23,226 bases of DNA from the NCBI GenBank assembly GCA_048939465.1, contig JBHLPL010000019.1:1-23226 (forward strand), in the 5' to 3' direction. Of the stretch, positions 6,286-12,457 are shown in pieces; position 1 is the first letter of the stretch, and every line of letters begins with the position of its first letter. The notes beneath the pieces were generated by a model. The model saw only the letters and a list, made by a program, of their open reading frames with translations, searched no databases and had not been told where the DNA came from. The position numbers and the translations under genes were made by a program. The stretch comes from Promethearchaeota archaeon (GTDB lineage Archaea; Asgardarchaeota; Odinarchaeia; Odinarchaeales; JBHLKK01).

Positions 6286-6654
6286 TTGGACGAGCTGGAA
6301 CGGATAAAGAAAAAGAAACTCATGGAACTCATGAAAGAAGCGAAAGACCGTGAGCGAGAGGAAGAGAAACAGAAAGAAGTTGAAAGCAGCAAGGATCAGA
6401 CACTCAAGGCCGTATGCACGCCAGACGCATACCAATATTTGGAATCACTCCAAAAAGTAAAGCCAAAAACTGCTATTGAGATTGGGAGGATAATAATATT
6501 CCTCACGACTAGAAGGAAGCTTGGCGGCAGGGTTACCAAAACAGGCGTCATGATTCTTGAAAGACGCATTGAAGGGGTCGGGCCAAGGATAAGAATAAAG
6601 CGTAGAGGGGAAGACCTAATGGATATATCTGAGAAGCTAAGAAAGAAGGGGTAG
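6286..6654 (+). CDS. PDCD5/TFAR19-like dsDNA-binding protein (divergent)
   Basis: DELERIKKKKLMEL...LKAVCTPDAYQYLESLQKVKPKTA parallels the family pattern dELexIRxxRlxEL...lrqiLTPEAreRLxxixlVKPexA. Confidence 0.75.
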   Translation: MDELERIKKKKLMELMKEAKDREREEEKQKEVESSKDQTLKAVCTPDAYQYLESLQKVKPKTAIEIGRIIIFLTTRRKLGGRVTKTGVMILERRIEGVGPRIRIKRRGEDLMDISEKLRKKG

Positions 6655-7523: not shown

Positions 7524-7982
7524 TTAAACAACAGCCGGGAGAGAGGCCTGGGCAATTTCTTTCTTCTTGCCTGCTTCCAGTCTTACTTCATTTACTGCTA
7601 TATCAACTATAGCGGGTATATTTCTTTTGAGGTCTCGACACATCATACTCTGCCATGTTTCATTCTTCAGCGTTTTGAAGTCGCTGGACGGAAAGACAAC
7701 ATCAACATTTACGATACACATCTCCCTTTCTTTCCCTTGGGGTTCAGTATCTTGATTCACGCCCAGAGAAGCAGGGATACCTGTCCAGAGTATCTTGGCT
7801 TCATTCCCCAACCTTCTTACTCTGACTACGTCGACTGCCTTTAGCACATCAAGTACATCATATATCCGTCTTTTCTTAGTCAAAGGAATACCAATGCTTT
7901 TGGCAATTTCCAGCGGCGATCTGGCTATATCCTGTGATTTCAAGTAAGATACCACTTTCCTCGACAGTTCAGAGAGTTTCAT
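7524..7982 (-). CDS. E2F/DP-family winged-helix DNA-binding domain protein
   Basis: KLSELSRKVVSYLK...EIAKSIG..KKRRIYDVLDVLKAVDVV...KILWTG carries the RRxYD motif and terminal W-x-G of the E2F_TDP domain. GGAGGGAG SD before ATG. Confidence 0.85.
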   Translation of the reverse strand: MKLSELSRKVVSYLKSQDIARSPLEIAKSIGIPLTKKRRIYDVLDVLKAVDVVRVRRLGNEAKILWTGIPASLGVNQDTEPQGKEREMCIVNVDVVFPSSDFKTLKNETWQSMMCRDLKRNIPAIVDIAVNEVRLEAGKKKEIAQASLPAVV

Positions 7983-8135: not shown

Positions 8136-8675
8136 TCATCTTTCATTCTTTTTGCTTCGGATTCTATTAATGGTTCCCTTTGTTAAGGCTGTAAAAGCTT
8201 CATCAACTTTTTGACCTGTTTTTGCGCTTGTCTCTAGGTATAGCGAACCCAGGGAGTTGGCTAATTTCTCAGCATCCTCCTTACGAACAGCCCTTAGGTC
8301 TTCGAGATCCACCTTATTGCCAACAATTACGGTTGAGACTGCTTTCCCAAGAAATTGGTTAAGCTCATCAATCCAATTCCTTAGATTCTGGAAAGTTTGA
8401 GCTCTGGTTAAGTCATAAACAATAAATGCTCCGGACGCTCCCCTGTAAAAAACATTTCGAAATGACTTGAATCTTTCCTGACCCGCAATGTCCCAAATGG
8501 ACAGTACAGCTATCTCACCGTTCACCTCAACATCCTTAGATAGAATATCTACGCCGATTGTCATCTTGTAATCACTTCTAAATTTGCCTTTGACGAAGCG
8601 TGTCACCAGAGTCGTTTTCCCCACTGCAGCATCTCCCAAGAGCAGTATTTTGAAGTTATAGGTTGGACCGGTCAA
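8136..8675 (-). CDS. Rab-like small GTPase (Ras superfamily)
   Basis: G1 GDAAVGKT, switch I TIGVD, G3 WDIAGQERF, FYRGA, G4 GNKVD, G5 ETSAK. TTG start. No C-terminal cysteine. Confidence 0.96.
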   Translation of the reverse strand: MTGPTYNFKILLLGDAAVGKTTLVTRFVKGKFRSDYKMTIGVDILSKDVEVNGEIAVLSIWDIAGQERFKSFRNVFYRGASGAFIVYDLTRAQTFQNLRNWIDELNQFLGKAVSTVIVGNKVDLEDLRAVRKEDAEKLANSLGSLYLETSAKTGQKVDEAFTALTKGTINRIRSKKNER

Positions 8676-8784
8676 GTTAGAGCCACCAGGAATTTAGAGT
8701 TTTCAATATATCTTCATAGGACAATCATTATATTTTTATCTTTCTCAAACATAATTATAGTCATCAGATACGTGGTGTTCGTAG

Positions 8785-9660
8785 ATGGGAAGTTATACGG
8801 TATCAGAAGATGCTCTTTTGAACCTAGTGGAGGGAATTAATTCCAAACAGGTCGTCAGACTGCTAAGAAGATGGGGTCACAAGATTAAACCAGGGAATCC
8901 GAAAGAGAACAATGCTAAGTTGATTCATAAATACGTTGGCAACTCCATTTCAAATGAACAACTCGAAGATCTATGGCTTTTAAGAGAGCAGCATGTAATC
9001 TTTAAGAAGCTGGGATGGAGGCTATTTGAGCTTGATATGAGAATGAAGAAGATGTCTCCCGAAGCTCTAGAAGAAAGGCTGAATGCGATTCTCAAGGAGG
9101 AAAGACTTACCAAAACCACACGATGCAGAGTATATGATCTTGGCAGGAGGAGTCTCCAGTATGTTAGCTTCATTTTTAAGGAAAGAGACAACATCTTCGA
9201 ATCATGGAAAAGTAAATTCAAAATATTCAAGCCTGTTTGGAAAGCTAGATGCATATTAGATTATGATCATAGTGTTATTAGAGTCAATGCAGAGAATGAT
9301 AACCTCGAAGTGGTTTTGAATATTCTTGGCACGGTCATGGGAGGCAGTCTTAAGAGCATCAGACTCCCTCCGTATATCTTGAAAGAATTAGCGGAAGAAG
9401 ATCTTGTGACAAGAATTGTCCTGCTTTCCTCAACTGAGGTGACCGGTGCAAAAGGCGTGGGCAGAATAGTGTTGGAAGGTAAGGATGTCATGAGGGGAGT
9501 AGAGGAGCTTCGTACAAGACAAGAGATAGATCTCAACAAACTAGGAGTGTTGCTCGAAGTGGGCACAAAATCACTAAAAGCAAATGTTGAAGGGATCGTT
9601 TGGACAGAAGACGAAAACAAAATGAATCGTTTTTTGGAGAAATTCATTAAATCAGACTAA
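8785..9660 (+). CDS. Hypothetical protein; candidate CENP-N/Chl4-like protein
   Basis: The ORF is clearly coding (291 aa, ATG after a GGTG SD). The family call rests only on by-eye alignment to recalled CENP-N/Chl4 sequences (see findings). The confidence value is for the family call. Confidence 0.55.
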   Translation: MGSYTVSEDALLNLVEGINSKQVVRLLRRWGHKIKPGNPKENNAKLIHKYVGNSISNEQLEDLWLLREQHVIFKKLGWRLFELDMRMKKMSPEALEERLNAILKEERLTKTTRCRVYDLGRRSLQYVSFIFKERDNIFESWKSKFKIFKPVWKARCILDYDHSVIRVNAENDNLEVVLNILGTVMGGSLKSIRLPPYILKELAEEDLVTRIVLLSSTEVTGAKGVGRIVLEGKDVMRGVEELRTRQEIDLNKLGVLLEVGTKSLKANVEGIVWTEDENKMNRFLEKFIKSD

Positions 9661-9702: not shown

Positions 9703-9858
9703 CAATATTTCAAACCTGCGAAATTCTATTGAAATTATCAGATTTTTTAGATATAAAATATAGAAAATTTTATTAATTAGAACGGTGCATATAGACCAAA
9801 GAAGTTGTTACTGTCAGCGGAAAAAACTCCTTCACACAAAAAAGGTAGGCGGGTTAAT

Positions 9859-10386
9859 TTGGAGTGGAGAGCTTTCTGGAGAAGATTTTGGAGCAATTGG
9901 TATAAGAGTAAAGTGAGGAGCTGGGGTGGTAGCAAGGGATTAATCATCCCATCAGCTATGAGAATTCCAAGAGGACCAGTGCTAATTCAGGAAGAAGGGC
10001 ACGTAATAAAAGTCATTCACTTGGCCATTCCCCTTACTGAATTCGTCGGGTTTGTAAAAGCAAGACTTGAGAACAGCTTGGATCATGACAACGGCCTAGA
10101 CTGGTCAGATGAAGAGATGGAAAATCGACTGACGGAAGTGTTGCTGGCGGTTCGGGCTTTGCAGCAACGATCCTCAAAGGAGTCTTCTGAATTCATTAAG
10201 GACACAGAAGATGTCCGCAGTCTCTTCTCAAGCATGGCCGGATCTATTGAGGCCCATCTGAAACTGTTCAGCAAAACGGATTCAGTATTTGGTAAGACAT
10301 TCCACTGGCAAAGACTTATGGACGAGGTGCAGAACGCCCTAAGTGTTCTCAACGGTCTGTTTGGAAAGATCCAGTACGCACAGTAA
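9859..10386 (+). CDS. AbrB/MazE/SpoVT-like DNA-binding domain protein with helical C-terminal domain
   Basis: SKVRSWGGSKGLIIPSAMRI..GPVLIQEEGHVIKVI matches the AbrB swapped-hairpin pattern KVxxWGNSxGIxIP. Start uncertain (TTG 9805 or TTG 9859). Confidence 0.65.
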   Translation: MEWRAFWRRFWSNWYKSKVRSWGGSKGLIIPSAMRIPRGPVLIQEEGHVIKVIHLAIPLTEFVGFVKARLENSLDHDNGLDWSDEEMENRLTEVLLAVRALQQRSSKESSEFIKDTEDVRSLFSSMAGSIEAHLKLFSKTDSVFGKTFHWQRLMDEVQNALSVLNGLFGKIQYAQ

Positions 10387-10582: not shown

Positions 10583-10816
10583 GTGGAAGGCATGTTGTCG
10601 ATAATCAGTAGTATCAACGAAATAGTCCAAGAATATGACGGATTAGTGCAAATCACAAAATCCGGGACGGACTGGTTAGAGACAAGGATACGAACAGAGG
10701 ACCCTGAGAAGAGGATACATGTATTAGTAGCAATGGCGAAGGAACTTGAAAAACAGTACTATAGACCGGTACATGTCTATAGTAATCACGATCGTCACAT
10801 GATTATTATGAAATAA
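10583..10816 (+). CDS. Small hypothetical protein (77 aa)
   Basis: Protein-like composition, GAGG SD-like sequence upstream, followed by a T-rich terminator. Start is GTG 10583 or ATG 10592. Confidence 0.65.
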   Translation: MEGMLSIISSINEIVQEYDGLVQITKSGTDWLETRIRTEDPEKRIHVLVAMAKELEKQYYRPVHVYSNHDRHMIIMK

Positions 10817-10864: not shown

Positions 10865-12457
10865 TTAGGCCTCGTCCTCAAAGGAATCAAATGCATCCTT
10901 AAACATCTTGACAGACCAGACCCAGTCTTTACTACGTCCGCTGTATAGTTGTTTTCCCTGGGGATCCTTCAGAGGAATTGCGCTGTGGACGAAATTCTGC
11001 CGAGTTCTGTAGCAGAGCCGCAGATCAGTGACTTCCTTCAGATTCTCTATGTATTCTCTTAAAATGTAATCTAGATTGGTTAGACTTCCCTTTGGAAGGC
11101 TGCAGAAAGCAGCTAGACTGTTATTTCCTCTCAGATCTCTTAGATGATAAACGTAAACCCTCGGTAGCTCAAGAACACAGGATTCGATCGTTTTGAGGAA
11201 ATGCATATCACCTGTACATTGGAGAAACACAGTCTCATCCAGGCCAACATTAACGAGATGTATATATGGAGAGAAGACGGCTTCTCGTTTGAGTCGCTCG
11301 CGACGCTCATATGTCTGAGATATACTGAGACCAAGCTCATTTGATAGCTGCCTTATAGGATTACTCGCATTAAGTGTGAGTAGGTTCAGTAGCTTCAGAT
11401 CTGTTAAATCGAAATCGATCAAACTTGCTTTTTCAGAGTGTTCATCTGTAGACCCCATATCCCCGGTTACATAAACAGAATAAAGACCTTCTCTAAGCAC
11501 TCTTCTAACCCATAATGCCCAGTTTTCCCAGCCGATATTCCACTCCTTTCTCTCGAAATCATAATTGGACTTGATTGCAAATGATTCTCTTTGGTTTGCT
11601 ACCTCCCAAAGCTCGCCTTCTATTCCATACTTCCTCAGGAGCGAAGACAGTGAATCTACAGCGCCTCCCGGTAGCGAGAAGGAGTAGGTGTTTAGAATTG
11701 TTCCAGCTCTCAGTTCTTGGATGATTTTCATATACGGGAGAAGAGGGAGTTTCTGACGTGTAATCAATATGAGGTTGACAAGCCCGAGCTTTCCGTAGTT
11801 TATTCGAGCGTTGACAGTCAGATAACATCTTCGATGAAGACGTCTTAAGTGGGCTGCAACAGTGTTCCTTGACAGTTTCAACTGCTTTGCAAGTTTCTTT
11901 ATCGAAATCAGGGGGTTTTGATCCATTGCGGAAAGCAAATCCACATCGGTTCTGTCGAGAAACATCCTTTGAGTCGATAGAGCAAGTAAATCCATATACT
12001 GAACTGTTTCCTGAACACTAAGCGGATATTTGTACATATCAAATTTGGCGACTCGCTCTACCATATTAGGCAAAAAAGATCCATCTGTAATATTGTCATA
12101 CCATAGCAAATCAAAAACAGAGCAATAAGTCGTTCCATCTTCGAATTGGATTGTGATTTTCGATTGGTCTGTAGGAGAAGAGTTCGTTTTCCTACACCAT
12201 TCGTTGAGTATTTCGGTCTTTTCTTTTCCACTGAGGATTTTGTACAGAAAGAGGTACGTAAGATCCTGACAGATCTGAGAAGGTAGCATCTCGGGCAGGA
12301 AGTGCTGGAAGATGCTACTCAGTCTTGCCTCCTTATCCAGATCGGCAAAGTCGGCAGGATCTATAGTGATAGCTAGCTCCTTTGTCCCAAGTAGGGACTT
12401 AATCTCTTCTATCTCTGCCGCAATTTCTTCTGCAGTGGGAACTAATGCTAACGTCAT
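10865..12457 (-). CDS. Tandem Lrp/AsnC-type transcription regulator with N-terminal extension
   Basis: Two AsnC-type HTH modules: LDRTDVDLLSAM..NPLISIKKLAKQLKLSRNTVAAHLRRL..NYGKLGL and DLTDLKLLNLLTLNASNPIRQLSNELGLSISQTYERRERLK..VNVGL. Confidence 0.82.
   Translation of the reverse strand: MTLALVPTAEEIAAEIEEIKSLLGTKELAITIDPADFADLDKEARLSSIFQHFLPEMLPSQICQDLTYLFLYKILSGKEKTEILNEWCRKTNSSPTDQSKITIQFEDGTTYCSVFDLLWYDNITDGSFLPNMVERVAKFDMYKYPLSVQETVQYMDLLALSTQRMFLDRTDVDLLSAMDQNPLISIKKLAKQLKLSRNTVAAHLRRLHRRCYLTVNARINYGKLGLVNLILITRQKLPLLPYMKIIQELRAGTILNTYSFSLPGGAVDSLSSLLRKYGIEGELWEVANQRESFAIKSNYDFERKEWNIGWENWALWVRRVLREGLYSVYVTGDMGSTDEHSEKASLIDFDLTDLKLLNLLTLNASNPIRQLSNELGLSISQTYERRERLKREAVFSPYIHLVNVGLDETVFLQCTGDMHFLKTIESCVLELPRVYVYHLRDLRGNNSLAAFCSLPKGSLTNLDYILREYIENLKEVTDLRLCYRTRQNFVHSAIPLKDPQGKQLYSGRSKDWVWSVKMFKDAFDSFEDEA

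Follow-up and report, generated by a model that had tools for sequence, protein, structure and literature searches.

A single-copy protein family of Asgard archaea with a predicted fold resembling that of the kinetochore proteins CENP-L and CENP-N

Introduction

The inner kinetochore proteins CENP-L and CENP-N have in common an LN-homology domain, possess a distinct C-terminal dimerisation domain and form a DNA clamp (PMC9235857). Their fold is TBP-like. RdgC is a distant relative of the two (PMC9235857, PMC4080450), and both have been proposed to go back to a homodimeric, DNA-binding singleton with kinship to RdgC (PMC9235857). In the human constitutive centromere-associated network, CENP-M, a Rab-like pseudo-GTPase, sits on the dimerisation domains of CENP-LN (PMC9235857, PMC4080450). 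How the kinetochore arose is still an open question: a 2019 study of kinetochore ancestry placed CENP-L/N among proteins without significant sequence similarity elsewhere and with only generic TBP-like structural relatives (PMC6601020), and RdgC was the sole distant cousin that structural work could name (PMC9235857). Here we describe a gene at positions 8785-9660 of a 23,226-nucleotide stretch of archaeal DNA (hereafter, the window), the product of which founds an Asgard-specific single-copy family with members of about 290 residues and is predicted to match, over its whole length, the fold of CENP-N and CENP-L better than that of any other solved structure.

The window is contig JBHLPL010000019.1, positions 1 to 23,226 of the forward strand, of assembly GCA_048939465.1, assigned to a Promethearchaeota archaeon (Asgardarchaeota; Odinarchaeia; Odinarchaeales in the Genome Taxonomy Database, GTDB). 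A preliminary description made from the letters alone had proposed that the protein is a full-length homologue of CENP-N/Chl4. In the literature that was searched, no paper on an Asgard CENP-L/N-like protein was found, and neither CENP nor the kinetochore nor RdgC is mentioned in the main texts of three structure-based Asgard proteome surveys, the supplementary tables of which may list such a protein. On balance, we consider it rather likely that this archaeal protein corresponds to CENP-L/N in an unduplicated form, i.e., as a homodimeric three-domain clamp on double-stranded DNA with a role in chromosomal housekeeping.

Predicted structure

The open reading frame (ORF) at 8785-9660 on the plus strand (P0001) is a real gene, with an ATG start, a stop codon at 9658-9660 and a product of 291 residues; all peptide strings quoted in the preliminary description, including the basic RLLRRW, KKLGWR, KTTRCR and KSKFK, are present in its translation. 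The same stretch of the locus was assembled independently in several studies, from mangrove and sediment metagenomes.

AlphaFold2, run without templates on an alignment of 23 sequences, gave a model with a predicted local distance difference test score (pLDDT) of 83.8 and a predicted template modelling score (pTM) of 0.81; an earlier run on five close homologues had reached a pLDDT of 57, which was too uncertain, and was discarded. The model consists of three parts, all encoded on the plus strand. The helical N-terminal domain (residues 1-76, positions 8785-9012) comprises a short strand and four helices, contains an L..W-G-F/Y motif with W30, and stands where CENP-N/Chl4 has its pyrin domain; a death-fold identity of this domain is weakly indicated. 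It is followed by an LN-homology-like, TBP-like alpha/beta domain (residues 77-192, positions 9013-9360), in which W78 is nearly invariant and which includes a loop (residues 134-151, positions 9184-9237) with pLDDT below 50 at residues 135-143 in the monomer model. The third part is another alpha/beta domain (residues 193-291, positions 9361-9657), which structural alignment and the homodimer prediction described below mark as the probable dimerisation domain. The model thus displays the domain features of CENP-N, namely a helical N-domain of approximately 80 residues and then an LN-homology domain of approximately 130 residues, the sheet of which is curved and TBP-like.

When the model was compared with the Protein Data Bank (PDB) by Foldseek, the top 22 matches were CENP-N, CENP-L, Iml3 or Chl4 (E 2.5e-7 to 8.6e-5), RdgC came at E 1e-4, and the next best matches had E-values of 0.017 and weaker. 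Among AlphaFold models of Swiss-Prot proteins, the first 19 matches were CENP-L, fta1, CENP-N, IML3, mis15 and CHL4, and RdgC appeared from rank 20. Residues 6-317 of CENP-N align colinearly with residues 8-250 of the model, with 186-192 residues aligned when only CENP-N residues 1-212 are considered, and the C-terminal domain of the model aligns with CENP-L and Iml3 over their C-terminal halves (to model residue 291) and with CENP-N to its residue 317. On these comparisons, the protein very probably belongs to the RdgC/CENP-L/N fold class and has the full domain order of CENP-N; a significant structural match to CENP-N/Chl4, with a helical N-domain preceding a TBP-like domain, is what the preliminary description had anticipated.

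The Asgard protein differs from its eukaryotic counterparts in several respects. CENP-N/Chl4 proteins (PF05238) are 339-458 residues long and form a heterodimer with CENP-L, whereas the Asgard protein has 291 residues, lies below every Pfam threshold and is predicted to form a homodimer. CENP-L/Iml3/fta1 proteins (PF13092) have a different N-terminal extension, and in most alignments they contain no counterpart of the Asgard N-domain.

Sequence-level comparison with CENP-N, CENP-L and RdgC

Searches with the single 291-residue sequence returned nothing from NCBIfam, nothing from the PDB with phmmer, and from Pfam only a noise-level match to Spore_III_AB, which was dismissed; the Pfam models of CENP-L (PF13092) and RdgC (PF04381) do not match the protein. 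Five family profiles were searched as well: A2, built from 23 sequences, A3 from 66, A4 from 36, A5 from the C-terminal domain only, and A6 from the N-terminal 135 residues of 14 sequences. In a HMMER search of all PDB sequences, the top four matches of A2 were human CENP-N (E 0.0034-0.0097, about 20 bits; chains 6muo_M, 6eqt_A and 7pkn_N among them), with profile positions 13-134 aligned to CENP-N residues 7-138.

The preliminary description had listed five colinear blocks of similarity to CENP-N. The human strings that it quoted for the first three are correct, and the same alignment is recovered by A2; the fourth block has no support in the sequence comparisons, and the fifth, a C-terminal motif, survives as a faint echo in one subfamily. 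There, the conserved C-terminal motif of the family (residues 259-288) aligns at E 0.055-0.19 with positions 366-395 of the Pfam CENP-N/CHL4 model, which has 410 positions. This C-terminal signal is colinear with the N-terminal signal of A2, and both are faint. The Pfam CENP-N model matches 2 of the 66 family members, at 11-13 bits and thus below its gathering score of 25 bits, so that by Pfam's own criterion the family stands outside CENP-N; the Pfam RdgC model matches 1 of the 66 at E 0.056. The sequence resemblance to CENP-N appears real yet marginal and is suggestive at best. Only the comparison of structures takes the likeness to CENP-N well beyond chance.

No match above the cut-off was obtained when 400 genomes of the phylum were searched in six frames with the Pfam CENP-N model. 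Two of the 35 weak matches, both from one genus, fell inside the family gene. Recurrent matches in another lineage, family f22, to the N-terminal 80 positions of the CENP-N model (E 0.2-0.4; L057:2995-3882, L058:427-1314 and L059:43-882) are spurious, the proteins being AbrB/SpoVT-plus-PhoU-like regulators of about 296 residues; such AbrB/PhoU-type proteins are a recurrent false positive to be expected when Asgard genomes are screened with this model.

Predicted homodimer and proposed mechanism

Two copies of the protein are predicted to form a symmetric dimer with an ipSAE (interaction prediction score from aligned errors) of 0.64, whereas the best of three controls reached 0.12; of proteins with solved structures, 20 of 30 homodimers and 1 of 23 single chains attain the ipSAE mark applied. 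The three dimer runs agreed in no fewer than 85% of their contacts, with a partner pLDDT of at least 82. The interface is centred on residues 220-253, which coincide with the invariant motif of the family: strand 225-232 runs antiparallel to its twin (228 opposite 228, expected error 1.0 Å), with helix 235-246 packed alongside, and the loop 134-151, of low confidence in the monomer, contacts residues 4-14 and 57-64 in the N-domain of the other copy. The prediction supports binding between copies, and it fits both the published C-terminal dimerisation of CENP-L and CENP-N and their proposed descent from a homodimeric singleton. The preliminary description had also suggested that the genome be searched for a CENP-L/Iml3-like partner. 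None was found: the source genome, which is 91% complete, has no match to PF13092 and no paralogue of the family gene, and the 108 genomes of the phylum in which the family was detected likewise carry one family gene each.

Of the possible mechanisms, that of a homodimeric DNA clamp has the best support, and from the models and the analogy with described clamps we regard it as fairly likely. The two copies would pair through the invariant C-terminal motif, i.e., through strand 225-232 and helix 235-246, so that the two curved LN-homology sheets would face each other and form a vault, or clamp, around double-stranded DNA, with a geometry like that of the kinetochore CENP-L/CENP-N heterodimer and of the bacterial RdgC homodimer. 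DNA or histone binding by the Asgard protein is inferred from the same models and analogies. The source genome contains two histone-fold genes. Of 23 family members, 19 are basic, with an isoelectric point above 8.7. The clamp may serve chromosomal housekeeping, for instance in the binding of DNA or chromatin, in segregation or in the control of recombination, possibly in cooperation with the neighbouring Ras/Rab-like GTPase. The housekeeping character is suggested because the gene is present in one copy per genome, is near-universal in about 17 families, matches no defence or phage family and has a stable chromosomal context. To our knowledge, archaea have no CENP-A, and the reading function of the CENP-N L1 loop therefore cannot be the same in the Asgard protein.

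As an Asgard-wide, single-copy and probably homodimeric protein, it fits the postulated lost singleton. Its model is closer than RdgC to CENP-L and CENP-N and has the additional N-domain of CENP-N, and the singleton hypothesis is thereby opened to bench testing. A direct descent of CENP-L/N from this archaeal family is plausible, with the chances roughly balanced; if this is true, a component of chromosome segregation or chromatin joins the eukaryote-like proteins of Asgard archaea.

Distribution and conservation of the family

When 1.84 billion representative proteins were searched exhaustively with phmmer, 23 relatives of the 291-residue protein were found. Close homologues (65-77% identity) come from metagenome-assembled genomes (MAGs) named Hodarchaeota and Promethearchaeota. 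With one exception, all relatives with a named source belong to Asgard MAGs (Hodarchaeota/Hodarchaeales, Heimdallarchaeota, Helarchaeota, Odinarchaeia, Freyarchaeum and Promethearchaeota). The exception (P0006; L004:1489-2382) comes from a MAG that NCBI labels as the bacterium 'Candidatus Deferrimicrobium', and what is apparently the identical protein is encoded in a genome assigned by GTDB to the Asgard phylum of the window; the bacterial label likely reflects mis-binning or mislabelling. Of the 400 genomes of the phylum covered by a profile search, 108 contain the gene, always as a single copy, and it is near-universal in about 17 of its families; the single copy without a paralogue in the source genome follows this pattern. 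A scan of the genomes of 185,579 species with a back-translated motif produced 28 loci, in which the true members were Hodarchaeota and Helarchaeota loci only; 26 bacterial loci were dismissed as chance matches.

Conservation peaks at a C-terminal signature (residues 218-254, positions 9436-9546 on the plus strand) of the pattern E..G..G..RI.LEG.DV..G...L..RQEIDL..LG, and the residues invariant across 66 sequences are G221, G224, G232, R245 and G254. One member (L041:4004-4795, genome G293) has 264 residues and is devoid of profile positions 130-163, being otherwise intact. The region missing from it is that of the flexible loop, which in the dimer model packs on the N-domain of the partner.

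Relation to the wider fold superfamily

A number of observations weigh against a specific tie between the Asgard family and CENP-N. The 291-residue protein itself has no match to Pfam CENP-N at E up to 10, and the Pfam models of CENP-N, CENP-L and RdgC find nothing at E up to 10 in the source genome. Profiles A3, A4, A5 and A6 retrieve no kinetochore protein from the PDB, their top matches being Integrator 7 and designed repeat proteins, and the CENP-N match of A2 is fragile for this reason; the designed repeat proteins reach E 4e-4 in one other family-profile search, which means that E-values of such a size can be spurious here. The passing of the dimer test may in part reflect the memory of the predictor for solved dimers of CENP-L/N, Iml3 or RdgC. 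The family gene was undetected by profile search in several large Asgard families (0 of 135, 0 of 19 and 0 of 14 genomes). Finally, bacterial and phage proteins of 411-415 residues superpose on the model (residues 2-291) with template modelling (TM) scores of 0.68-0.72, compared to 0.60 for CENP-L, 0.59 for CENP-N and 0.52 for RdgC, and in the AlphaFold Database (AFDB) clusters unnamed proteins match it at E 2e-10 to 1e-7, at or above the level of a eukaryotic CENP-L (3e-6). The alignments of these look-alikes span the N-domain too, and the three-domain build is thus not exclusive to Asgard archaea and eukaryotes.

Judged by predicted models, the fold is shared by a wide superfamily of prokaryotic proteins, among which RdgC and lambda RexA have been characterised. 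The look-alikes, which were found in ESM Atlas and the AFDB clusters, include the AFDB entries A0A2T1D2Y5, A0A023X7L7, A0A7X7G1Z2 and A0A1Q9NNC3 and fall in the neighbourhood of RexA, GAPS4b_N, DUF4868 and MJECL33, have the highest TM scores to the Asgard model, but they are longer or fused, some carrying WYL, OmpR or type III restriction helicase parts, and they show no sequence similarity to the Asgard family detectable in the exhaustive phmmer search. The initial proposal of a full-length CENP-N/Chl4 homologue is partly supported: it stands for the three-part fold over the whole length and falls short in that Pfam membership is absent and prokaryotic look-alikes fit the model as well or better. 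In AFDB, a 651-residue uncharacterised protein (A0A1Q9NNC3) matches the whole model with its first approximately 330 residues at E 1.9e-10; this protein could represent a longer paralogue built on the same module, and it may likewise be archaeal.

The look-alikes lend some credit to the view that the Asgard family belongs, as a further branch, to a broad superfamily of prokaryotic RdgC-like DNA clamps (RdgC, RexA, and clamps linked to helicases and restriction-modification) with no special tie to the kinetochore, in which case the likeness to CENP-L/N would stem from a shared ancient fold and the protein would control the nucleoid or recombination as RdgC does. We consider this doubtful. In three different searches, RdgC ranks below all CENP-L/N entries among the solved structures; RdgC, a bacterial recombination-associated toroidal DNA-binding homodimer, superposes on the model worse (root-mean-square deviation 6.2-6.5 Å compared to 3.3-4.5 Å) and aligns only from residue 69-73, lacking the N-terminal helical domain. 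Neither the Asgard protein nor the source genome has a sequence or Pfam match to RdgC (PF04381), and none of the family profiles matches the RdgC sequences in the PDB, whereas CENP-N was matched once. RdgC occurs in bacteria and phages, whereas the family is restricted to those archaea that are the nearest relatives of eukaryotes, where its chromosomal context is stable.

The Ras/Rab-like GTPase and other neighbouring genes

If the protein is indeed an archaeal counterpart of CENP-L/N, the gene next to it offers a striking parallel. A Ras/Rab-like small GTPase (positions 8136-8675, minus strand; Pfam Ras E 2.9e-56, Roc E 7.5e-34) is separated from the CENP-L/N-like gene by a divergent intergenic region of 109 bp (8676-8784). 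The parallel to CENP-M, drawn by analogy, would be one of context only: the nucleotide-binding motifs of the Asgard GTPase are intact (G1 GDAAVGKT, G3 DIAGQE, G4 NKVD, G5 SAK), unlike those of the CENP-M pseudo-GTPase, and Asgard genomes encode many such GTPases. Such a GTPase adjoins the family gene in about seven family-level lineages and in two layouts. The head-to-head layout is found in families f1 and f2, which belong to the same taxonomic order as the window, in f17, in f19 and in one MAG of Helarchaeota, with gaps of 49-344 bp in lineages other than that of the window; in the co-directional layout, the GTPase lies 12-42 bp upstream in family f11 and overlaps stop to start in f32. Given the 18 Ras-family matches in the source genome, chance adjacency is expected in about 2% per genome. 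In a poorly resolved tree of the adjacent GTPases and the paralogues from the source genome, the adjacency label was clustered (2 of 500 shuffles were as low), and the tree is compatible with a single origin of the adjacent GTPases as well as with several. In about ten further families, the gene occurs without this GTPase neighbour.

A bolder scenario, in which the Asgard protein represents a pre-eukaryotic part of the DNA-gripping core of the inner kinetochore, a GTPase-controlled clamp on histone-bound archaeal chromosomes that was later duplicated into CENP-L and CENP-N during eukaryogenesis, strikes us as unlikely. The recurrent adjacency could alternatively mean that the protein does not act on DNA and is a partner of the Ras/Roc-like GTPase (an effector, a regulator or a COR-like dimerisation device), with its TBP-like domain used for protein-protein contacts as in adaptin appendages; we find this quite improbable, and the families in which the gene stands without a GTPase neighbour are to be set beside it. 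That the protein belongs to a mobile element or to antiviral defence, as RexA or the helicase-fused clamp modules do, is hardly credible: the fold class does include RexA, as well as modules joined to type III restriction helicases, but PADLOC and PHROGs gave only single noise-level matches to the family, the viral structure library gave only weak matches to phage RdgC-like proteins, and the gene is single-copy, near-universal within its families and surrounded by conserved housekeeping genes, those for ribosomal protein S7, a PDCD5-like protein and an Lrp-type regulator.

The genes flanking the putative DNA clamp, i.e., those for the GTPase, an E2F/DP-type protein and a PDCD5-like protein, are typical of Asgard archaea. 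The E2F/DP-type winged-helix protein of 152 residues (7524-7982, minus strand; PF02319, E 1e-8) is encoded beside the GTPase gene in f1 and f2 and not in the other lineages with the family gene. The PDCD5-like double-stranded DNA-binding protein (6286-6654, plus strand; PF01984) is encoded upstream of the pair formed by the GTPase and CENP-L/N-like genes in at least five lineages (f1, f2, f17, f19 and Helarchaeota), which indicates that the small cluster is older than the taxonomic order to which the window belongs. Downstream on the plus strand, two ORFs without Pfam matches, one of 193 residues (9805-10386; homologues in f1 and f2 at E 1e-30 to 1e-100, absent elsewhere) and one of 77 residues (10583-10816), keep their order and position in f1 and f2 only. 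They are followed on the minus strand by the gene for a 530-residue protein with repeated Lrp/AsnC-type helix-turn-helix domains (10865-12457), which occupies the same place in loci L051, L052 and L055.
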